From the NCBI RefSeq assembly GCF_024700885.2, contig NZ_CP117016.1: a DNA stretch of 64,000 nucleotides. One strand, given 5' to 3'. The stretch comes from Escherichia coli. GTDB taxonomy: Bacteria; Pseudomonadota; Gammaproteobacteria; Enterobacterales; Enterobacteriaceae. The position numbers were made by a program, and so were the translations under genes. Below, piece after piece: positions 1 to 11,370 of the stretch; positions within the stretch are counted from its first letter, which is position 1, and every line of letters starts with the position of its first letter. The notes beneath the pieces were generated by a model. That model did not search any database, was not told the DNA's origin, and worked only from the letters and a program-made list of their open reading frames with translations.

Positions 1-215
1 AGTCAAATTTGTCCAACTTCCCTTGATTAAAAACAACGAGTTTTTTTATAGAAAAGAAAAACTTTCTCGCATAAGCTGAACTAAAATTCACAGCAGTATA
101 GGCAAGGGTCTCTTTTATAGATGCTAATAAGATAGCATTAATGTTTCTTTCAAAATATGAGAAATTTAATTTAACATCTTTGCTGAGAAACCAAACACTA
201 TCATGTAAACTAAAA

Positions 216-1547
216 TTATTTCTGCTGTCTTTTGCCTTTAATACCAAGTAATTTTCTAACATTAATGCTTTCATCTATTTCTCCTTCAATTTTATTTATG
301 ATTTCTTGATTCACTAAATCTGCCTCTTCAAAAGCTTTTAAAGTTTCTTCACTAATATAACGATTGTTATAAATCAAAGCCGTTTTGGAGTTCATTTTCC
401 ACCCCATTCTTACGCATCTGATTCTATCTAATTGGGTCAATCTATATTGATCAGTGACTCCTATGTATTTTAAACTGTAAATATAGTTCCATGTGTGCCG
501 TAGACAATGCCCTGTGAAATTTTGAAAAGATACTCCATTGAATTCAATTCTACTTATTTGCTTAATTACTTTATGATATGCACTTATTGACAGAGGAAAT
601 CCTTCCGTAGGACCAGATTTTTGAGTAATAAATAAGTAATTATGATTTAAGCTTTTCGAATAGAAAGACCTATCATTGTCTATATATGAAGAGATTTGCA
701 TAGACAATTTTTTGCTAATATTTAATTCTCGTTCAAATGTTTTAACAAGTGGTTGAAAAACTCTTGGGTCTGCTGGATCATTTATTCTTTTACAAACTTT
801 CAGATATCTTTTTTCCTTGTTAAAATCAGTAATTTTCAAGTTCAATAGCTCACCCCCTCGCATTCCAGTTTCCTGAAGAATGAGGATTATGAGTTGATTT
901 CTTTTACGGCAACTGATATCAACAAATGGATTGTATTGGCTTTCAGGTTCTATACATTGCAATAGAATGTCTAAGCTTTCTTTTTCTAATGATTTAAAAT
1001 CATTATTCAAATAGAATTGAGAGTTTAATTTTGGTTTATGTTTACGAAAAAGCAAACTAACACTTTTTGATATAATGTTTGTCTCATATATTGTAGTGCT
1101 AAAATATGATTCATAAATCCAAGAAATGTAGGAACTAATTACTGTCAATCTATAATGAAGATTTTCTTGATTGATCTTTTTATACTCTTTTATATCTATA
1201 ACTTTTTGTTTTTTATTTTTAACTCTAAGTTGTTCTGACAATGAATAGATTTCAGTAAAGCTAAGGAAGGTCTTAGATCTAATTCTTTCGATAAGATTTA
1301 TATTTGATTCTATTAGATAATTTTCAAAAGCAATCAAAGTGTAAGCATTTCTCAATACTGTATTAAATGACTTATTCTTTTGCTTATATAGCAAACTAAG
1401 ATATATATTTTGATAATACAATGGCAAACCGTTTTTTGAATCCAAAATCATACAAAATCTGCTTCCATCACTCGCCATTAACTTCTTTACTGAATATCTC
1501 CTATTCATTATCACCCCATAATTTATTTTTTTATTTATAGGTAACAT
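216..1547 (-). mobile_element. Tyrosine site-specific recombinase (phage integrase family), AT-rich foreign gene
   Basis: 443 aa ORF; recombinase motifs seen in translation: ETGMRGGELLNL (box I Arg), GHCLRHTWNY (H-x-x-R), LIYNNRY (candidate catalytic Tyr). Strongly AT-rich codon usage unlike flanking core genes. ATG at 1545-1547. Confidence 0.6.
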
Positions 1548-1626
1548 AATTTTTTAGCAAGTTACAAATTTATTTGCTATTATTTTCAATGACCTTATTA
1601 CTCGCGACTCTAATAAAGAATCGGCC

Positions 1627-1652
1627 ATATATTCACCTTAAGGTGAATATAT
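1627..1652. promoter_or_regulatory. Perfect 26-bp palindrome ATATATTCACCTTAAGGTGAATATAT just upstream of the tRNA cluster; candidate operator or recombinase site
   Basis: Read directly: 11-bp inverted arms around a TTAA centre, followed by TTGACG at 1661-1666. Function unverified. Confidence 0.3.
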
Positions 1653-1680
1653 ATTCCCTCTTGACGCTCCAAAAAACAAT

Positions 1681-1757
1681 GCGGTAGTAGTTCAGTTGGT
1701 CAGAATATTCCCCTGTCACGGGAATGGTCGTGGGTTCGAGTCCCATCTATCGCGCCA
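1681..1757 (+). tRNA. tRNA-Asp (anticodon GUC), island-borne
   Basis: Manual cloverleaf fold: acceptor GCGGTAG/CTATCGC, D arm GTTC/GAAT, anticodon stem TTCCC/GGGAA with loop CTGTCAC, T arm GTGGG-TTCGAGT-CCCAT, discriminator G, encoded CCA. Confidence 0.7.
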
Positions 1758-1761
1758 GAAA

Positions 1762-1836
1762 GGGCAATTAACTCATTGGTAGAGTGTATCTCTTACAAAG
1801 ATATGGCGGTTGGTTCGATTCCAACATTGCCCACCA
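1762..1836 (+). tRNA. tRNA-Val (anticodon UAC), island-borne
   Basis: Manual fold: acceptor GGGCAAT/ATTGCCC, D arm ACTC/GAGT, anticodon stem TATCT/AGATA with loop CTTACAA, T arm GTTGG-TTCGATT-CCAAC, encoded CCA. Differs from the chromosomal E. coli tRNA-Val sequence as recalled. Confidence 0.7.
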
Positions 1837-1847
1837 AAACATAAAAT

Positions 1848-1918
1848 GCGTCAGTATTTCAATGGTAGAATAAAACATTGCCAATGTTTAGGTGAGGGTT
1901 CGATCCCCCTATATTTAC
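1848..1918 (+). tRNA. tRNA-like element with Gly (GCC) anticodon arm; 3-prime acceptor strand not complementary, so possible pseudo-tRNA or recombination remnant
   Basis: D arm TTTC/GAAT, anticodon stem AAACA/TGTTT with loop TTGCCAA, T loop TTCGATC present. 5-prime acceptor GCGTCAG has no complementary 3-prime strand (ATATTTA) and no CCA. Confidence 0.3.
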
Positions 1919-2104
1919 TTTAGTTAGTAACTCATTGATATAAAATAAATAATAGAAAAGTGTAATTTGTTTTGTAAAGCACAAATAAGAAATTAGAAAA
2001 TATTTAAATGTACAGTGTACGAAAAATTAACCAACTATGTTAATGGCAACTATATGATGATAAAATTACTCATCTAACGATCTATATTATATGAGTAATG
2101 TTTC

Positions 2105-2680
2105 ATGGTACGAAAAATCTCTACATTTTTAAAGATAATAGGAGTTATAGGTTCTTTATGCGGGATTATTGCGACAGTATTCACAATCTATGCGTACTAC
2201 AACCCGACCTCCCCTTCTACTCAGAGATATGACAGTATTGTAGGAAGCTGGCTATCTGATTACTCTTACACCGTAAAAGGGAATACCGTTAGGGTTAATG
2301 GAAAAACGACCTTCTTCTCTAATGGAAAATACAACTTTCATGGCAGTATCTCTATTGACTCTAATGCTCCAGGTGACCATATATTAATAGATTATCTTTC
2401 TGATGGTGCTGGTGATTGGGAACTATATGATAATGAGTTAATTACATCATTAAATAGCCTAAAAACAAAACCTATGAAGCTGGCTTTAAATAACGAAGAT
2501 CTTGATCCACTGAAAATAGAGGTGATAAACAATAAAAAGTTACCAACTATTGAGGAGAATATGGCTGATGGGAAAAACCAATCCTATAAAATAATAAAAT
2601 CTTCAAAAAGCCAGTTAACATTGGAGGTTATTAACGAAATCGGAAGCAATTTCAACTTTACTATGCAAAAAACAAAATAG
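2105..2680 (+). CDS. Hypothetical membrane-anchored protein (single N-terminal TM helix), island cargo
   Basis: 191 aa ORF; hydrophobic N-terminus FLKIIGVIGSLCGIIATVFTIYAYY; AT-rich; convergent with the helicase gene and sharing a terminator with it. Confidence 0.45.
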   Translation: MVRKISTFLKIIGVIGSLCGIIATVFTIYAYYNPTSPSTQRYDSIVGSWLSDYSYTVKGNTVRVNGKTTFFSNGKYNFHGSISIDSNAPGDHILIDYLSDGAGDWELYDNELITSLNSLKTKPMKLALNNEDLDPLKIEVINNKKLPTIEENMADGKNQSYKIIKSSKSQLTLEVINEIGSNFNFTMQKTK

Positions 2681-2682
2681 AA

Positions 2683-2714
2683 ATGATGGCGATCTGAAAT
2701 CGCCATCATTTTTC
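2683..2714. terminator. Bidirectional rho-independent terminator between convergent genes
   Basis: Hairpin TGATGGCGAT-cugaa-ATCGCCATCA followed by TTTTT. Confidence 0.5.
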
Positions 2715-4560
2715 AACCTTGATAATCTTCAGCCTCGATACCACAATAAGTTATCATGTTTGTTATTAACGGTATATCATTACAATTCTGCTTGAAAGAC
2801 CTGCCATAACTATTGTTTCTTATTTTACAACGAGTCATTAATACTTCTTCAATGGCTCTTGAAAATGCCACAAAGACTGTTTTTTGATTTTCTATTTGCT
2901 CTTCTTCTTTACCAAAATAGGCACCAGGTTCAAGCCCCACAACGATGACCTTCCTGAACTCTAACCCTTTACTTTTATGGATGGTCATAAGAGGTATTGT
3001 TTTATTGCCAAGTAATAAATCAATGGCTTCTGATGTGTTTTCTTTTACATCTAACTTATCGAGGTGGCGAGAAAGTAATTCTATGCTATATTCTAAAACA
3101 TTCCCACTCATATACTGCGGAAAGTAAGACTTTATTTTATCGACACCAAATATACTTAATAATGAATATAAATAATCGACAATTTCTCCTTTAATTACCC
3201 GATGAGATTTAATAAACTGGCTAAGTTCTTTTTCTAACCGTGTAACATCACCTCTTTTACTTACTCCTCTTATATTACATAGAAGCTCCATTGTAGTGGC
3301 CCAGCTTTCTATGGATTTTCTATTACAGACAAACATTAGCATTTGTAAAAGTAACTGTACTACAGCTTCATTTAAAAGATCCTGATACTCGTTCTCAAGG
3401 CGACATTGTATTTTCAAATATTGCAATGCTGAAATGATATCGTCTGTATATTGTTTAGCCGGGTTTCTTAGCAGTATACATATATCTCTTTCATTTACTC
3501 CTTCAGCAATCCATTGCTGGATACATAATGCTATATATGCCCCTTCAATACTACTTTCGTCAAATTGTAGTAACTTAGCTGAACCTTCATTTTCAATCAA
3601 CATCATATCAGGCTTTATATCAGCATGATTCATGAAAGCTTCCATCATGCGTTGATAATTTATGAGGTTTTTTAATGACCTTCTATTGCTAACTAATTCA
3701 TTAGATTGTTCGATTCCAAAATCTTTTTTAAACACATCAAAAGCATTGTGCATTGCACCTGCCCAACCCATTATTCTTTGTTTTGTATCACCGACTGCTG
3801 TTATTTTTATTTTTTTACCCAAGAAAATGCTCTTAAAAATCTCATATTGCCTATATGTTGTGTCCTGAAACTCATCGATAAAAGCATAGTCATATGTTGA
3901 ATTTATAGCATTAGATAAATATTGATTCCTACTAATAATATAATTAGCAAGAAAATTAATCATCTTGAATGAAATCCTTGATTTTGGTTTTAATAAGTGT
4001 AACCACACAAACCGTCTTATCCTGCCATCAACAGAATGTTCTAATGCTTTATTATAAGGAGTTACTATATAATTCTCTTCAAAATTATAAGGTTGTAATT
4101 TATTTAATTCTTCAGATGTTAAACCTTCAAAGCCTACGGCCTCTCTTTTAATTTCTTCAACTAAATCATTATTATTTGGAAAGATTATTTCATAGTCATT
4201 TGATGGACGATAAGATTCCGGAATAGTGCTTTTAAAGCGATCAACAATACTTTTACAGAATGCATCAAATGTTGTTGATTCAAATTTGTGTCTATATTTT
4301 GTATCAAGCCGTGAGTTTACTCTATCTTGAAGATTTTTGGCCGCATCTTTTTTAAAGGATAATGCAATTATTTTTTTATTGCTGCATTTTCCTGTCTCAA
4401 TCAAGAAACAAGCTTTCTGAGCCAATAATTCTGTTTTACCTGCACCGGGACCAGCAAGAACGAGATTATGCCCTGTACTATTTCGAATTACCCTCATAGC
4501 CTCGTCTTCTACTTCTTGGATATCCTTTAAAACCCAATCGGCATCTTTAATAGTCGGCAT
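2713..4560 (-). CDS. UvrD/PcrA-like superfamily 1 helicase (GajB-like)
   Basis: 615 aa; SF1 helicase motifs in translation: LAGPGAGKTELL (I), IDEFQDTT (II), GDTKQRIMGW (III), VSNRRS (IV), TIHKSKGLEF (V), VAFSRA (VI). ATG overlaps the upstream stop by 1 nt (TAATG). Confidence 0.8.
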   Translation of the reverse strand: MPTIKDADWVLKDIQEVEDEAMRVIRNSTGHNLVLAGPGAGKTELLAQKACFLIETGKCSNKKIIALSFKKDAAKNLQDRVNSRLDTKYRHKFESTTFDAFCKSIVDRFKSTIPESYRPSNDYEIIFPNNNDLVEEIKREAVGFEGLTSEELNKLQPYNFEENYIVTPYNKALEHSVDGRIRRFVWLHLLKPKSRISFKMINFLANYIISRNQYLSNAINSTYDYAFIDEFQDTTYRQYEIFKSIFLGKKIKITAVGDTKQRIMGWAGAMHNAFDVFKKDFGIEQSNELVSNRRSLKNLINYQRMMEAFMNHADIKPDMMLIENEGSAKLLQFDESSIEGAYIALCIQQWIAEGVNERDICILLRNPAKQYTDDIISALQYLKIQCRLENEYQDLLNEAVVQLLLQMLMFVCNRKSIESWATTMELLCNIRGVSKRGDVTRLEKELSQFIKSHRVIKGEIVDYLYSLLSIFGVDKIKSYFPQYMSGNVLEYSIELLSRHLDKLDVKENTSEAIDLLLGNKTIPLMTIHKSKGLEFRKVIVVGLEPGAYFGKEEEQIENQKTVFVAFSRAIEEVLMTRCKIRNNSYGRSFKQNCNDIPLITNMITYCGIEAEDYQG

Positions 4561-6548
4561 TAAAGTAATCCTCTTACTGTTTCGATAATTTCATTAAGAA
4601 CTTCAGGACTATCATCTCTTAACTTATCGTCTTCCATTTTTGATAGAACATAATTGTGCGATAATGGTTTACCTCTTCCTAAAAATAGGTAACGATACCA
4701 AAAATATTTTTCATAATCATCGAACTCACTAATATCAATATCTTTCTCTTCTTTTTTCAAAACTGCAGCAATTGCCGATTTAACTTTATTATCATATTCA
4801 TGATCGTCATCTTTTGGCAATCTTGGCCCACCATTTTTGGGAACAAATGTCTTATAATCCTCAAAGAATTTATTAAGCATTAGCCAATCTAAATCGTAGG
4901 GGTAAGAAAAATAAACATTATAATCTTTTAGACAATTAATCCATGCCGATTCATTATCTTGATCCTCATCCCATGTATGCATTTTTTCAAGCTCTTCATC
5001 ACTTAAAGTTCCTGAAGTAATACTTAACAATTCATTTTTATCTGCACCTATAGATATTAATTGTTTGACTGCATATTTAATTCTTCCCCAACCACCACCT
5101 CCTCCTCTCTTGAAATCATAGTCGAGAAGAGTCACATGTGGAATTGAAAGCTCATTGAGTAACTTCCAAAAATGATTAACATATCGCCCTCCTAATGGAG
5201 CAAATGTTATCAATGAAGTGTCAAGCTCTATACCATTTACTTGAGCTATTTTAGGTATTACTATTTCTTCGCTATCACCTTCACCAAGTATTACAACTTT
5301 TGCAAAATAAATTTCTGGATATGCCTTCACTGCTTCTTTTACATAAGTGAAAGTATCAACATTGTCTCCATCGTCTTCATCTTCGCTTGGTAATAATATT
5401 GGTTTGACAACAGTATTTTTATTATCATGTAGACGAAAATACCTTATATTTTCTGGTTCTACTCTATTGAGTAATGAAGGTGCGTGTGTTGTTAAAACAA
5501 CCTGTGCTCGATCATTCTCAGATATATCTTCACATAGTTTAACTATTCTTCCTAAATATTGGGGTGAAAGATGATTTTCTGGTTCTTCGATTAATATTAT
5601 CGTTAAATTTGGAGGATCTAATGCTTCTACTGATATTGATAATTCATTTTCTCCTGAATTAATGATCTCATCTTCAATATCAAATGCAGATTTGACTAAC
5701 GAAAGATAAAACAATGACTTCATACCATCACTCAATCTTTCAGTTGGTAATGGCTGAGTCACCGGAGTAGGCATAAATACAGTATCTATATGCTTTAATA
5801 CATCTTCTATTCCATTCATTACTGGCTGAATTTTAAGCTGTTCAAAATACCCTCCGCTAAAAAGAGTTTTCCAATTTCTGCCCAATGAAGATGTTATTGT
5901 CTGAACCCCAATTTCTTCTTGGAACTGGTTTCCGATTGATTCTGCAACCTCATCAACCGTTGAACTCATCTGTTCAGACCATTCAACTGCATTTATCAAA
6001 CGGTGCATGATGGTTCCGGCTGTTTGCTTCAGTTGTTGAGCAGGATCGCGATAAGCAGGGACATAATGAACATGGATTTTTGATCTTTCATATGCTGTAA
6101 TATTTTTTTCATATTCTCCTATTTCCCATACTAAATCACTATCTATATCCCCTTCTGCAAGATTAGTTTTTGTCCATTTAGCTTTTAATTTTGCTATACA
6201 GTATGGGATCTGGTCTGCTTCATTTGAGACCAAATGCTTAAAGAAATCAGCGACTGAATCGTCCTCACCATCTTGCAGATCTGCAAATTCAAATTTTACA
6301 CGAACTGATAATTCTCTTTCATCTTGAGTATCGATTTCATCTCCAGGAGGAACATAAAAATCATCAACTTGAACAATTCTATCGGAGCTTTTGACACCAA
6401 ACATCCTTGTCAATGCGAGGAGAACAGCCGTCTTACCTGTTCCATTCCCTCCAATTAAGCTGGTGAATGAATTTATATTTATAGTTTGCCCTACATTATC
6501 AAAGCTCTTAAAACCTTTGATCTCCATTTGTGTAATTTTCATTATCAC
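4560..6548 (-). CDS. OLD-family ABC-type ATPase with C-terminal TOPRIM nuclease domain (GajA-like)
   Basis: 662 aa ORF from a GTG; likelier ATG start at 6542 with GAGGTG Shine-Dalgarno. Walker A GGNGTGKT, ILIEEPENHLSP (Walker B/D-loop typical of OLD ATPases), VLTTHAP (H-loop), TOPRIM-like VVILGEGDSEEIV and LLDYDFKRGGGGGWG. Confidence 0.8.
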   Translation of the reverse strand: MIMKITQMEIKGFKSFDNVGQTININSFTSLIGGNGTGKTAVLLALTRMFGVKSSDRIVQVDDFYVPPGDEIDTQDERELSVRVKFEFADLQDGEDDSVADFFKHLVSNEADQIPYCIAKLKAKWTKTNLAEGDIDSDLVWEIGEYEKNITAYERSKIHVHYVPAYRDPAQQLKQTAGTIMHRLINAVEWSEQMSSTVDEVAESIGNQFQEEIGVQTITSSLGRNWKTLFSGGYFEQLKIQPVMNGIEDVLKHIDTVFMPTPVTQPLPTERLSDGMKSLFYLSLVKSAFDIEDEIINSGENELSISVEALDPPNLTIILIEEPENHLSPQYLGRIVKLCEDISENDRAQVVLTTHAPSLLNRVEPENIRYFRLHDNKNTVVKPILLPSEDEDDGDNVDTFTYVKEAVKAYPEIYFAKVVILGEGDSEEIVIPKIAQVNGIELDTSLITFAPLGGRYVNHFWKLLNELSIPHVTLLDYDFKRGGGGGWGRIKYAVKQLISIGADKNELLSITSGTLSDEELEKMHTWDEDQDNESAWINCLKDYNVYFSYPYDLDWLMLNKFFEDYKTFVPKNGGPRLPKDDDHEYDNKVKSAIAAVLKKEEKDIDISEFDDYEKYFWYRYLFLGRGKPLSHNYVLSKMEDDKLRDDSPEVLNEIIETVRGLL

Positions 6549-7195
6549 CTCAATTGCTGTTTTAAAAAATTATAATCACTAATTATTTCTGCGTTTGTAA
6601 TGATTTCTTGTGAGCACAGCTTAAAACATTCTAAAAATATATTTTTATTATCGTTATGTTCCCAATGTTTTTTCAAAGCTTCTTCAATTGAAATCCAAAT
6701 AACTTGAAAATCGTTATTAGATATTTGGCTTGTTAAAACTGTTTCTTCCACACAAAGTATATGCCCTAAGATGACATCATCGTATATGTCAGTATCTGAA
6801 TCTCTAACTCCTAACCTTTTTATTTTCCTTTTTTGGATGATTTTATTTTTAACAATAAAAGGATGTTCTTCTATAAAATCGGTCAATGATGTAAAAGCCA
6901 AGCCACGAACCTGAGCACCATGCATTGAACTATTTACTTTATGGATATCTCTCCAAACTCGCAGATCACCTAATACATAGAGAACCCGCTGATTTCTCGC
7001 TTTCGTATCTTCTGCTTGGTATTGGATATAAGGTGGCCCTCCCCCATTTTGTCTATATCGGGCAAGGGTTTTGATGCTTATGCCAAGAAAGACAGAAGCA
7101 AGCTCACTATTTACAGTGGCAGAATCAGGCATTTGACCAAATAGTTTCCATACCTCTGAATACTCCCGCAAAACTTCCACCACACTCATCTTCAC
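6545..7195 (-). CDS. HTH-domain protein (excisionase/MerR-like N-terminus plus uncharacterised ~130 aa C-terminal domain), first gene of the defense operon
   Basis: 216 aa ORF (GTG at 7195 or ATG at 7189). N-terminal ELASVFLGISIKTLARYRQNGGGPPYIQY resembles excisionase-type HTH. Starts within 2 nt of the integrase stop and ends 2 nt before the GajA-like start. Confidence 0.5.
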   Translation of the reverse strand: MKMSVVEVLREYSEVWKLFGQMPDSATVNSELASVFLGISIKTLARYRQNGGGPPYIQYQAEDTKARNQRVLYVLGDLRVWRDIHKVNSSMHGAQVRGLAFTSLTDFIEEHPFIVKNKIIQKRKIKRLGVRDSDTDIYDDVILGHILCVEETVLTSQISNNDFQVIWISIEEALKKHWEHNDNKNIFLECFKLCSQEIITNAEIISDYNFLKQQLR

Positions 7196-8655
7196 TCCCT
7201 CGTTTCAGGTAATGGAGGATACTTAGCCGAAGCAAGTAACACATTGTATAATTTAGGAGCAGTCATAAGCATATGCAACTCAATCCTTTGTAATGCTTCA
7301 AAAATCCGTTCTTGATCAGGTTCTGCATACCTTTCTGTTGGATCTGTTGTATTTCTGTGATTGAGCAGTCTCTTAACGACGGCATATGAAACAAGTTCTT
7401 CAGCAACCCTACCAAATGTCCTTCGTAGATCATGCATACCAAGCTTCAGGATTCCCGCCTCTTGGCAGATATATTCCCTTAGACTTTTACTATCGGAATA
7501 GTGACCAACTTTACTTCGAGAAGAACGGGCCGGGAAAACCCACTTCTGTTTGTCCTTCTGGGTTACCGTATCGTTTACTATGTCTCTTCTATCTTCCAAA
7601 ATTCTTTTGACAGCATCACAAATCGGAAGCTCGTGATCGTTTCGATTCTTAGTGTCGTAAAAACGGATAGTTCTGTTACTCAGGTCAACATAGCTTGTCG
7701 TTTTAGCTTCTTCCTTTGTAAGAGACTCTCGCCAACACAGAGAAGCTGTTTCTTCCTTACGAGCACCTAAGAGAACGGTAAGTAGCAGATAATCGCACCC
7801 AAGCCGGTTGAAGCTTCTCTTGTTGAACAATGCAGTCAAGAACCGACCAAGTGTATCCTTTGGTGATAAGGGGTTTCTGACACCTTTTGCCCGATAACTA
7901 TCCTCAAGCTCAGAACGTGTCCTAAACTTTTTCTGTACCTTTAAGATACTGAAAGGGTTGTAAGATAGAGAAGGTTGTCGTTGCTGGGTCTGAGCATTCC
8001 CAGCTTCAATCTCTATTGCGTGTTTTACAGCAACATTCGCCCACCTAAAGGTCTGTTCCGCTGCTGTTCTGGCTCTTGAAGCAATCTCATCAAACTTCCT
8101 AAGAATTTCATTACCAGTAAGATCTTTAACTCGCAAACCAGCCCACTCAGAAAGCCTGTTTTCTGCTTTATCTAATACAGCCAAGGTGTTGGGTTTAGCT
8201 GGTTTCGCTCTACCCAGCAGATGCTGGCGGTATTGTGCAAACACTTCACTGATAGTGAGTTCAGAAGCATCGGACTCCCGTTTTATTTTGTTAGGGTTCC
8301 TTTTGGTCAACTTCATGGTTTGAACTAAATTGCGAGCAACCTCGCGGGCTTGATCGATGTTAGCGAAATCAGAGACATTGCCAATTGTAGACCTGATAAC
8401 CTCAGATGGGGATTTTCCCCCTGTCTTAGGGCGATTGCCAGGAGAAGAGACTCGTCGCTGAACGATATAGGTCTTTTTCGTTGCACTGATTTTGACACCA
8501 AAACCAACGGGTGAATCCCGGTGATTATCAGTGATAAGATACGGTTTTCGCTCTGGATTGGGTAAGTAGACTACTCTGCCTTGCGGATCAAGGCTCGGTT
8601 TCACGTCGATAGATAACTTATTGATTATAATCGACTGATTGAGTGTCATTTTCAT
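7192..8655 (-). mobile_element. int: P4-type tyrosine integrase
   Basis: ORF track 7192..8763; trimmed to internal ATG (MKMTLNQ...) at 8653-8655. N-terminal arm-binding-like region (YLITDNHRDSPVGFGVKISATKKTYIVQRR), box I ARKEE, HDLRRTF, C-terminal ERY. Near-host GC, unlike the cargo. Confidence 0.8.
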
Positions 8656-8658
8656 CGA

Positions 8659-8717
8659 TGTATACCAGTGGTTCAAGTGTGTATACCAGATAGTAGCTAG
8701 AATACTTCTGGTATACA
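8659..8717. repeat. Three copies of TGTATACCAG (two direct, one inverted) at the integrase 5-prime end; candidate integrase-binding or att-associated sites
   Basis: Exact 10-mers at 8659-8668 and 8680-8689 (direct) and 8708-8717 (inverted), between the integrase start and mutS. Confidence 0.45.
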
Positions 8718-8787
8718 AATTTATGGGTTTATGTGAGTTTAAAGGGGTATCACTTGGGGCCACATAAGTACTCAGAAGACTTTAAAA

Positions 8788-11370
8788 ATGAGTAAAATCA
8801 ATATGAAAGAGTCTGCAAGCAAGGATCTATCAGACCACACTCCTATGATGCAGCAATATCTCAAGCTGAAAGCCCAGCATCCCGAGATCCTGCTGTTTTA
8901 CCGGATGGGTGATTTTTATGAACTGTTTTATGACGACGCAAAACGCGCGTCGCAACTGCTGGATATTTCACTGACCAAACGCGGTGCTTCGGCGGGAGAG
9001 CCGATCCCGATGGCGGGGATCCCCTACCATGCGGTGGAAAACTACCTCGCCAAACTGGTGAATCAGGGCGAGTCCGTTGCCATCTGCGAACAAATTGGCG
9101 ATCCGGCGACCAGCAAAGGTCCGGTTGAGCGCAAAGTTGTGCGTATCGTTACGCCAGGCACCATCAGCGATGAAGCCCTGTTGCAGGAGCGTCAGGACAA
9201 CCTGCTGGCGGCTATCTGGCAGGACAGCAAAGGTTTCGGCTACGCGACGCTGGATATCAGTTCCGGGCGTTTTCGCCTGAGCGAACCGGCTGACCGCGAA
9301 ACGATGGCGGCAGAGCTGCAACGCACTAATCCGGCAGAGCTGTTGTATGCAGAAAATTTCGCCGAGATGTCGCTGATTGAAGGTCGTCGCGGACTGCGCC
9401 GTCGCCCGCTATGGGAGTTTGAAATCGACACCGCGCGCCAGCAGTTGAATCTGCAATTTGGCACCCGCGATCTGGTCGGTTTTGGCGTCGAGAACGCGCC
9501 GCGCGGACTTTGTGCTGCCGGTTGTCTGTTGCAGTATGCGAAAGATACCCAACGTACGACTCTGCCGCATATTCGTTCCATCACCATGGAACGTGAGCAG
9601 GACAGCATCATTATGGATGCCGCGACGCGTCGTAATCTGGAAATCACCCAGAACCTGGCGGGTGGTGCGGAAAATACGCTGGCTTCTGTGCTCGACTGCA
9701 CCGTCACGCCGATGGGCAGCCGTATGCTGAAACGCTGGCTGCATATGCCAGTGCGCGATACCCGCGTCTTGCTTGAGCGCCAGCAAACTATTGGCGCATT
9801 GCAGGATTTCACCGCCGAGCTGCAGCCGGTACTGCGTCAGGTCGGCGACCTGGAACGTATTCTGGCGCGTCTGGCTTTACGAACTGCTCGCCCACGCGAT
9901 CTGGCCCGTATGCGTCACGCTTTCCAGCAACTGCCGGAGCTGCGTGCGCTATTAGAAAATGTCGATAGCGCTCCGGTACAGGCGCTGCGTGAAAAAATGG
10001 GCGAGTTTGCCGAGCTGCGCGATCTGCTGGAGCGAGCAATCATCGACACACCGCCAGTGCTGGTACGCGACGGTGGTGTTATCGCACCGGGCTATAACGA
10101 AGAGCTGGATGAGTGGCGCGCGCTGGCTGACGGCGCGACCGATTATCTGGAGCGTCTGGAAGTCCGCGAGCGTGAACGTACTGGCCTGGACACCCTGAAA
10201 GTCGGCTTTAACGCGGTTCATGGTTATTACATTCAGATCAGCCGTGGACAAAGCCATCTGGCACCCATCAATTACATGCGTCGCCAGACGCTGAAAAACG
10301 CCGAGCGCTACATTATTCCAGAGCTAAAAGAGTACGAAGACAAAGTTCTCACTTCAAAAGGCAAAGCACTGGCACTGGAAAAACAGCTTTATGAAGAGTT
10401 GTTCGACCTGCTGTTGCCGCATCTGGAAGCGTTGCAACAGAGCGCGAGCGCGCTGGCGGAACTCGACGTGCTGGTGAACCTGGCAGAACGGGCCTATACG
10501 CTGAACTACACCTGCCCGACCTTTATTGATAAACCGGGTATTCGCATCACCGAAGGCCGCCATCCGGTGGTTGAACAGGTGCTGAATGAGCCGTTTATCG
10601 CCAACCCGCTGAACCTGTCGCCGCAGCGTCGCATGTTGATCATTACCGGTCCGAATATGGGCGGTAAAAGTACCTATATGCGCCAGACCGCACTGATTGC
10701 GCTGATGGCCTACATCGGCAGCTATGTACCGGCACAAAAAGTCGAGATTGGACCTATCGATCGCATCTTTACCCGCGTAGGGGCAGCGGATGATCTGGCA
10801 TCCGGGCGTTCAACCTTTATGGTGGAAATGACCGAAACCGCCAATATTTTACATAACGCCACCGAGTACAGTCTGGTGCTGATGGATGAGATTGGGCGCG
10901 GGACGTCCACTTACGATGGTCTGTCGCTGGCGTGGGCGTGCGCGGAAAATCTGGCGAATAAGATTAAAGCGTTGACACTGTTTGCCACCCACTATTTCGA
11001 GCTGACCCAGTTACCGGAGAAAATGGAAGGCGTCGCCAACGTGCATCTCGATGCGCTGGAGCACGGCGACACCATTGCCTTTATGCACAGCGTGCAGGAT
11101 GGCGCGGCGAGCAAAAGCTACGGCCTGGCGGTTGCAGCTCTGGCAGGCGTGCCAAAAGAGGTTATTAAGCGCGCACGGCAAAAACTGCGTGAGCTGGAAA
11201 GCATTTCGCCGAACGCCGCCGCTACGCAAGTGGATGGTACGCAAATGTCTTTGCTGTCAGTGCCAGAAGAAACGTCGCCTGCGGTCGAGGCACTGGAAAA
11301 CCTCGACCCGGATTCACTGACTCCGCGTCAGGCGCTGGAGTGGATTTATCGCTTGAAGAGTCTGGTGTAA
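8788..11370 (+). CDS. mutS: DNA mismatch repair protein MutS, with a non-K-12 N-terminus
   Basis: 860 aa; near-identical to E. coli MutS from about residue 17 (HTPMMQQYL...). First ~16 residues ([16 protein letters not shown]) differ from the K-12 N-terminus (MSAIENFDA, from memory). Confidence 0.95.

Follow-up and report, generated by a model that had tools for sequence, protein, structure and literature searches.

Our analysis supports a model in which two overlapping minus-strand genes in a 64,000-nucleotide stretch of Escherichia coli DNA (RefSeq assembly GCF_024700885.2, contig NZ_CP117016.1; hereafter the window) encode an intact two-gene Gabija system, with a class 2 OLD nuclease, GajA, and a UvrD-like helicase, GajB, of a long subfamily widespread in Enterobacterales. 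We put the probability of this reading at roughly 88%, and the sequence suggests that the system is probably functional. The window is identical (100%) to E. coli strain MLI114. An original prediction, made from the DNA letters and their open reading frames (ORFs), had already recognized a Gabija-like anti-phage module here and had suspected a divergent subtype from the length of the two products. Its Gabija interpretation stands, as PADLOC, Pfam, profile comparison and the fold of the GajA model all agree. The canonical sizes that it gave, about 580 and 495 amino acids, are those of the B. cereus reference pair (578 and 494 amino acids; a plasmid gajA/gajB pair of which gajA is so named in RefSeq), and the suspicion of divergence is borne out by the low identity to the Bacillus proteins (~22-23%) and by the greater length of both proteins. 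Gabija is known as a kind of system, and the subfamily is already covered by full-length PADLOC models (2023).

Family membership and catalytic residues

Profile searches place both proteins in the Gabija families. The PADLOC models match end to end: GajA aligns with PDLC00090 at 798 bits (E = 1.9e-240; residues 3-660 on profile positions 1-652 of 659) and GajB with PDLC00103 at 659 bits (E = 2.6e-198; residues 3-610 on profile positions 3-608 of 612). These matches are far beyond chance. The best non-Gabija PADLOC models score far lower, at 105 bits for Old and 99 bits for AriA with GajA, and at 207 bits for RTasHel with GajB; the weaker matches of GajA to Old, AriA and PtuA all lie far under their cut-offs. 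The Pfam domains that the original prediction had named as its own check were all detected, with AAA_15 (1e-25), AAA_21 (1.4e-17) and OLD-like_TOPRIM (PF20469; 1.5e-15 over residues 415-478) in GajA, and UvrD-helicase (6.9e-36) and UvrD_C in GajB, where AAA_19 was found besides. No NCBIfam model reaches its cut-off for either protein; matches far beneath threshold were to PtuA, MAD3, the effector of retron Eco8, UvrD, PcrA and Rep. This result is neutral, speaking neither for nor against Gabija, and it accounts for the generic RefSeq product names, 'ATP-dependent nuclease' and 'UvrD-helicase domain-containing protein'.

The motifs from which the pair had first been recognized are all present in the translations. 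GajA contains GGNGTGKT, ILIEEPENHLSP, VVILGEGDSEEIV and DYDFKRGGGGG, and GajB contains GPGAGKT, DEFQDT, GDTKQR, TIHKSKGLEF and VAFSRA. The conservation of the residues behind them was read from alignments of relatives. A search of 1.84 billion cluster representatives returned 292 relatives of GajA at E <1e-30, and 109 full-length ones, which share 30-46% identity with it, were aligned; residue numbers of GajA are counted from the ATG at 6542, which gives the 660-amino-acid form. Invariant in all 109 are G31, N33, G36 and K37 of Walker A, E319, E320, P321 and E322 of the Walker B region, E421, G422 and E425 around the TOPRIM glutamate, and D474 and D476 of the TOPRIM DxD, together with D550, K625 and H629. 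The H-loop histidine H353 and G452 are conserved in at least 90% of these relatives.

The positions correspond to those that matter in the B. cereus protein. In phmmer and hhalign alignments K37, H353, E421 and D474/D476 lie opposite B. cereus K35, H320, E379 and D432/D434, and E319/E320 align with E288/E289. The complete TOPRIM active site published for B. cereus GajA consists of E379, D432, D434 and G409 (PMC10781630); we take G452, by its position, to be the counterpart of the invariant G409. The N-terminal part of GajA is an ABC-type ATPase that has its Walker A, Walker B and H-loop, the C-terminal part an OLD-type TOPRIM domain with the catalytic glutamate, glycine and DxD, and every residue required to bind and hydrolyse ATP or to cleave DNA by the two-metal TOPRIM reaction is conserved. 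GajB is likewise a superfamily 1 (SF1) helicase of the UvrD/PcrA/Rep type with its motor motifs intact. Among the 59 relatives that were aligned, there is no variation in motifs I, II, III, V and VI, the fixed residues being G37-P38-G39, G41 and K42; D229-E230-F231-Q232-D233; G257, D258 and Q261; R294; T526, H528 and K531-E534; and S567 and R568.

Predicted structures and comparison with characterized systems

Homology to the B. cereus proteins extends over most of their length. With hhalign, GajA aligns at 99.2% probability (E = 1.8e-19, 22% identity; residues 1-484 against 1-441) and GajB at 99.3% probability (E = 1e-20, 23% identity; residues 22-603 against 4-485). When PDB sequences were searched directly with phmmer, GajA and GajB were found weakly, in partial matches with E values around 1e-11, so profile and fold comparisons were needed. 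An AlphaFold2 model of GajA (predicted local distance difference test score, pLDDT, 91.6; predicted template-modelling score 0.90) has the solved GajA structure 8u7i_A as its best PDB match in Foldseek (E = 2.6e-24; template-modelling scores 0.58/0.61), followed by Thermus OLD (E = 1.8e-22), other GajA entries and the retron Eco8 effector. The model also contains two features expected of a Gabija nuclease. The ATPase domain is predicted to be split by a helical insert, with helices 167-184, 190-209, 211-227 and 272-296 lying between ATPase strands, and B. cereus GajA has a corresponding helical insert through which it dimerizes (PMC10781630). In the predicted secondary structure of the TOPRIM domain, four helices occupy residues 485-539 between strands 469-474 and 543-546 (pLDDT ~90-96), and such a helical insertion distinguishes class 2 from class 1 OLDs (PMC10568477). 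The GajB model (pLDDT 84.9) matches full-size PcrA, UvrD and Rep at E values of 1e-30 to 1e-26. In the structural check envisaged by the original prediction, comparison with GajA and GajB, the best match of the nuclease is thus a solved GajA, and for the helicase the solved GajB lies outside the top 50 matches.

These comparisons bear on whether the pair could instead be another OLD-based system, such as a class 1 OLD that has an unrelated helicase for a neighbour, or a system resembling PARIS or retron Eco8. We regard this as most improbable. The Foldseek scores of class 1 Thermus OLD nearly equal those of GajA, and weak matches, all far under the cut-offs, were given by PADLOC to Old, AriA and PtuA and by NCBIfam to PtuA and to the effector of retron Eco8, which scored 30.7 bits where 250 are required. 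Against this, the full-length score of the GajA profile exceeds those of Old and AriA several-fold (798 bits against 105 and 99), the GajA model has the class 2-type helical insert in its TOPRIM domain, and every relative examined keeps an overlapping helicase partner. A class 1 OLD was rejected on this last ground, as it should stand alone and an overlapping UvrD-like gene is present both here and in all those relatives. PARIS was rejected because ATPase and TOPRIM are fused in one 660-amino-acid protein, unlike AriA and AriB, and because the partner is a helicase; the AriA profile spans only residues 3-359 of GajA (98.6 bits). A retron of the Eco8 type, with its class 3 OLD, was rejected since the OLD effector is not next to a reverse transcriptase. 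The ORFs of positions 1-9000 comprise three annotated recombinase or integrase genes, orf191, orf214, gajA and gajB, besides short antisense ORFs, and no reverse transcriptase, HNH or AriB-like ORF is among them. In PADLOC and NCBIfam searches the four neighbouring annotated proteins tested gave no match to a reverse transcriptase or defence family, and an Rfam search over positions 1400-2800 returned tRNAs alone.

With the Gabija reading preferred, the window system can be set beside those already characterized. The Gabija of B. cereus VD045 (PDB 8SM3, 8U7I and 8J4T; PMC10781630, PMC8136825) resembles it in gene order, in its abutting or overlapping genes, in a GajA that joins an ABC ATPase with a helical dimerization insert to an OLD-type TOPRIM with E, G and DxD, and in a GajB that belongs to the UvrD-like SF1 helicases and bears a DExQD box. 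The differences lie in size, window GajA having 660 amino acids against 578 and window GajB 615 against 494, with the extra length of the helicase largely in residues ~105-190 and ~400-500, and in setting, the window system residing in a Gram-negative host on a chromosomal mobilizable island. The Gabija of Pseudomonas aeruginosa PA14, encoded on PAPI-1 (PMC12407980), is also Gram-negative and carried by a mobile island, a likeness that we draw from its published description. Its defence requires both genes and the ATPase, TOPRIM and DExx residues, and its expression is modulated by upstream native sequence (PMC12407980). The mechanism proposed for it, a non-abortive attack on linear ends free of RecBCD, differs from the abortive nucleotide-depletion model of Bacillus.

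Among other OLD proteins, the class 2 enzymes of Xanthomonas campestris (6NJV) and Burkholderia pseudomallei (6NK8) resemble window GajA in the TOPRIM region, 6njv at E = 9.8e-9 over residues 411-507 and 6nk8 at E = 9.2e-5. As PMC10568477 relates from Schiltz et al. 2019, both were solved for their C-terminal regions alone. The Burkholderia enzyme, BpOLD, acts as a nonspecific 5'-3' exonuclease, is affected negligibly by nucleotides and has no known phage target (PMC10568477); in the literature covered we found no phage target for the Xanthomonas OLD. The class 1 enzymes, Old of phage P2 and the OLD of Thermus scotoductus (PDB 6P74), have the ABC ATPase and TOPRIM fold in common with window GajA. 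They are stand-alone proteins that have neither a helicase partner nor a TOPRIM helical insert, whereas window GajA has the partner and, in its model, the insert.

Several observations weigh against the Gabija assignment or limit how far it can be taken. Foldseek barely separates GajA from class 1 Thermus OLD (2.6e-24 against 1.8e-22), a margin so small that the GajA fold by itself points to the OLD family without singling out Gabija. The Bacillus proteins are only ~22-23% identical, and the GajA alignment ends near residue 484, leaving the last ~175 residues unmatched. The solved Bacillus GajB is absent from the top 50 fold matches of the GajB model, and since the predicted GajB fold is nearer to PcrA, UvrD and Rep, the geometry and stoichiometry of the complex and the role of the helicase could differ from those of Bacillus Gabija. 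A scan for sigma-70-like promoters yielded 21 sites, against a mean of 28.5 in shuffled sequence, with nothing above background; the putative site at 6676-6647 is only a consensus match. In the literature we found no paper that demonstrably tests or characterizes the long enterobacterial subfamily. Two studies have validated E. coli Gabija systems in texts that carry no accessions. The residue numbers they report (K35/H317; E466) do not fit the catalytic positions of window GajA, and the validated systems probably belong to a different subfamily.

The gene pair, its alleles and its island

The two ORFs lie where the original prediction had placed them, at 4560..6548 (662 amino acids) and 2713..4560 (615 amino acids) on the minus strand, and the TAATG stop/start overlap that it described is found at 4558-4562 on that strand, where the junction reads ACTTTAATGCCG; the stop TAA of gajA and the start ATG of gajB have one nucleotide in common. 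The length of 662 amino acids needs revision. An ORF of that size is present, but gajA most likely begins at the ATG at 6542, giving a protein of 660 amino acids that starts MKITQ, since a GAGGTG Shine-Dalgarno sequence lies 5 nucleotides before this ATG (upstream sequence GAGGTGATAATGAAA), RefSeq uses the same start and homologues are 659 amino acids long. Coordinates of the ORFs (Table 1) are from a six-frame list of the window. The integrase, orf214, gajA and gajB form a string of four genes in this order, with integrase first and gajAB last, whose junctions all measure at most 2 nucleotides or overlap. The gap between orf214 and gajA is 2 nucleotides, and the start of orf214 overlaps the integrase stop or falls within a few bases of it. 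At the other end, the hairpin between gajB and orf191 reads AAATGATGGCGAT...ATCGCCATCATTT and is followed by a T-rich tail; from its sequence it is probably a bidirectional intrinsic terminator that closes the gajAB transcript.

Table 1. Positions of gajAB and of the features around it in the window
Feature	Position	Strand	Remarks
gajA	4560..6542	-	660 amino acids from ATG at 6542; alternative GTG at 6548 gives 662 amino acids
gajB	2713..4560	-	SF1 UvrD/PcrA/Rep-like helicase, 615 amino acids
Hairpin, 14-bp stem	2681..2711		between convergent gajB and orf191; terminator-like site, consensus match only
orf214 (context)	6545..7189	-	island backbone gene, directly upstream of gajA
Tyrosine integrase (context)	7192..8655	-	487 amino acids (RefSeq), adjoins mutS; PHROG integrase match 5e-15
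orf191 (context)	2105..2680	+	191 amino acids, convergent with gajB
tRNA-Asp(GTC)	1681-1757	+	CCA encoded
tRNA-Val(TAC)	1762-1836	+	CCA encoded
tRNA-like element	1855-1910	+	3'-truncated, without acceptor stem (34 bits in Rfam); Gly-GCC-like anticodon loop

The gajA-gajB module is a conserved unit that sits among defence and toxin genes. On the source contigs of six distant relatives (30-46% identity), a UvrD-family helicase gene encoding 602-632 amino acids abuts or overlaps the 3' end of gajA in every case, and the co-directional, gajA-first arrangement of adjacent genes is kept in these six and in eight enterobacterial loci. The neighbours of the distant pairs differ, and include genes for a HipA toxin, for EcoRII restriction-modification, for an SLFN-like helicase and for a reverse transcriptase. 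The subtype occurs in 13 of 5426 complete E. coli genomes, always on the chromosome. Close homologues with 80-93% amino-acid identity are found in Klebsiella, Enterobacter, Salmonella, Citrobacter, Pantoea, Yersinia, Pectobacterium and Dickeya, and the plasmid and phage collections hold only relatives of at most 39% identity.

Both genes are under purifying selection. Compared with the allele of another enterobacterial genome, the ratio of nonsynonymous to synonymous substitution rates (dN/dS) is 0.16 for gajA and 0.14 for gajB. This speaks to the possibility that gajAB is no longer active and persists as a relic on its island, which we consider highly improbable. Two of the 13 E. coli copies are disrupted, one by an IS3 insertion and the other through fragmented ORFs (NZ_CM173848.1, NZ_CP053281.1), and the promoter scan described above gave no convincing dedicated promoter. 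On the other side, neither ORF is broken in the window or in five further alleles, the catalytic residues are all retained, and dN/dS stays between 0.06 and 0.16 even across alleles whose synonymous divergence is saturated.

The alleles themselves are mosaic. When the window was compared with alleles L013, L024 (strain 4/4), L025, L026 and L027 (strain 58), three segments, GajA 1-480, GajA 481-660 and GajB, were found to be exchanged independently. L027 has a GajB 97% identical to that of the window and a GajA C-terminus of ~56% identity; L013 has a GajA N-terminus that is ~100% identical and a GajB of 71% identity. The synonymous divergence (dS) between allele segments runs from 0.09 to >3, which is saturation, with dN/dS of 0.06-0.15 in every segment. 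On these values no positive selection was detectable in the variable segments, and the pattern is one of recombination between old alleles under purifying selection.

The gene pair is cargo of an island between ygbA and mutS, with the integrase next to mutS. The AT-rich island that the original prediction had described is real, with a GC content of 0.25-0.38 over positions 1-7000, whereas mutS and the core genes beyond it have 0.51-0.60. To the left of the window the island goes on with a second recombinase, more hypothetical genes and a relaxase. Its content as a whole includes two overlapping tyrosine recombinases, proteins of 548 and 127 amino acids, the relaxase and the mutS-side integrase, and the recombinases and relaxase mark it as an integrative, mobilizable element. 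The second recombinase pair and the 548-amino-acid protein were considered as a possible GInt three-integrase cassette; the 548-amino-acid protein has no recombinase signal. Close homologues of gajAB occupy the same integrase-bearing island next to mutS in all eight loci examined, and in the S1 Table of Hochhauser et al. (2023) the mutS-ygbA interval appears as E. coli defence hotspot #8, with 27 of the 1322 genomes having it occupied. Another island with the same backbone carries DRT3a/b, and comparison with it sets the cargo borders at ~2014 and ~6875, so that the cargo block comprises orf191, gajB, gajA and the 3' half of orf214. Related islands at the mutS site hold retron Ec48 with an ABC-three-component (ABC-3C) system, a pair of an AAA ATPase and an HNH gene, or an added ToxN. 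The integrase keeps its position in these islands. This context, itself already published, supports a defence role.

The same context invites a different view, in which gajAB is a DNA-processing or maintenance module of the island itself, serving its excision, replication or transfer or excluding rival plasmids and islands, and phage defence is not the selected role. The pair is packed, operon-like, right behind the integrase and orf214, the island carries a relaxase and further recombinases, and the Gabija of PA14 is reported to act on plasmid DNA as well. We nevertheless think this view very unlikely. In all six distant relatives the pair is found without this island backbone and has unrelated genes for defence or toxins as neighbours; its slot is taken in sister islands by DRT3, a defence system rather than a mobility function; and in many relatives ToxN stands between the integrase and orf214-gajAB, so that the linkage to the integrase is not fixed.

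Two neighbouring genes were considered as a third component of the Gabija system, and both were rejected. The first, orf214, had no significant family match in PADLOC, NCBIfam, PHROG and further searches, and is also present in the DRT3 island, where its homologue in the same place is 52% identical. Conservation is found mainly in the first ~110 residues, and its N-terminus is weakly helix-turn-helix-like (...SIKTLARYRQNGGGPPYIQY...); the C-terminal half is much more diverged, the DNA-level cargo border at ~6875 falling inside the gene. It may be an excisionase-like or regulatory protein. The second, orf191, has a hydrophobic N-terminal segment that is probably membrane-spanning, and gave no family match in the same searches. 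It adjoins gajB in all eight enterobacterial loci (91% identity, dN/dS 0.27) and is absent beside the six distant Gabija relatives.

Beyond orf191, a 251-bp insert at 1654-1904 forms an AT-rich mini-array of tRNA genes on the plus strand (Table 1). It behaves as an indel, being present in 4 of the 13 E. coli Gabija islands and absent from the DRT3 island and from the enterobacterial island L013, and no copy was found elsewhere in the 5426 E. coli genomes. Its best phage matches are tRNA-Asp genes, 74-80% identical, from phiKZ-like and Vibrio phages; viral contigs scanned for an exact copy of the island tRNA-Val contained none. Exactly at the left edge of the insert, downstream of a recombinase gene, lies a perfect 26-bp palindrome (1628-1653, ATATATTCACCTTAAGGTGAATATAT), which could be a terminator or a recombination site.

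Proposed mechanism and significance

How the window system would act can be proposed from the B. cereus and P. aeruginosa PA14 systems (PMC8136825, PMC10781630, PMC12407980, PMC10568477). In B. cereus a GajA tetramer and two GajB dimers assemble into a 4:4 complex of ~500 kDa that cleaves phage DNA (PMC10781630). GajA nicks site-specifically and is strongly inhibited by higher ATP, and activation has been proposed to follow when nucleotides fall during phage replication and transcription (PMC10568477); the account of this nucleotide-sensing endonuclease by Cheng et al. 2021 agrees (PMC8136825). PA14 Gabija is non-abortive and blocks the circularization of linear phage DNA, the ends of which are shielded from RecBCD by phage proteins (PMC12407980).

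By analogy, we propose that window GajA would oligomerize through the helical insert of its ATPase domain and that GajB would dock onto it to form one complex. The nuclease would be kept quiet by nucleotide binding to the GajA ATPase and by RecBCD acting on host DNA. Upon infection, the complex would engage incoming phage DNA, probably at exposed linear ends free of RecBCD, with GajB contributing the sensing of DNA ends and the hydrolysis of (deoxy)nucleoside triphosphates; the TOPRIM site of GajA would then nick or cleave the DNA and phage replication would stop. As in the model systems, the outcome could be either direct clearance or abortive infection. Given the full PcrA/UvrD-like build of the predicted GajB structure, real translocation or unwinding by this subunit is plausible. 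We also entertain, as a tentative and on balance unlikely idea, that the long subfamily departs from the Bacillus model in detail, with GajB a true translocating helicase rather than chiefly an NTPase triggered by DNA ends, and the C-terminal ~180 residues of GajA, which comprise the TOPRIM insert and a helical tail with the invariant D550, K625 and H629, an exchangeable module for specificity or for evasion of inhibitors. If so, alleles would differ in the phages or DNA structures that they attack.

These findings add one more intact Gabija to an E. coli accessory island at a published hotspot, and go little beyond annotation. Their useful outcome is a correct functional label in place of the generic RefSeq names. 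The long subfamily is common in Enterobacterales and only ~22% identical to the Bacillus model. It would offer a convenient native E. coli system, one that could help decide between the nucleotide-depletion model and models based on RecBCD and DNA ends. The mosaic alleles, in turn, are natural chimeras for mapping the part of the system that determines phage specificity.

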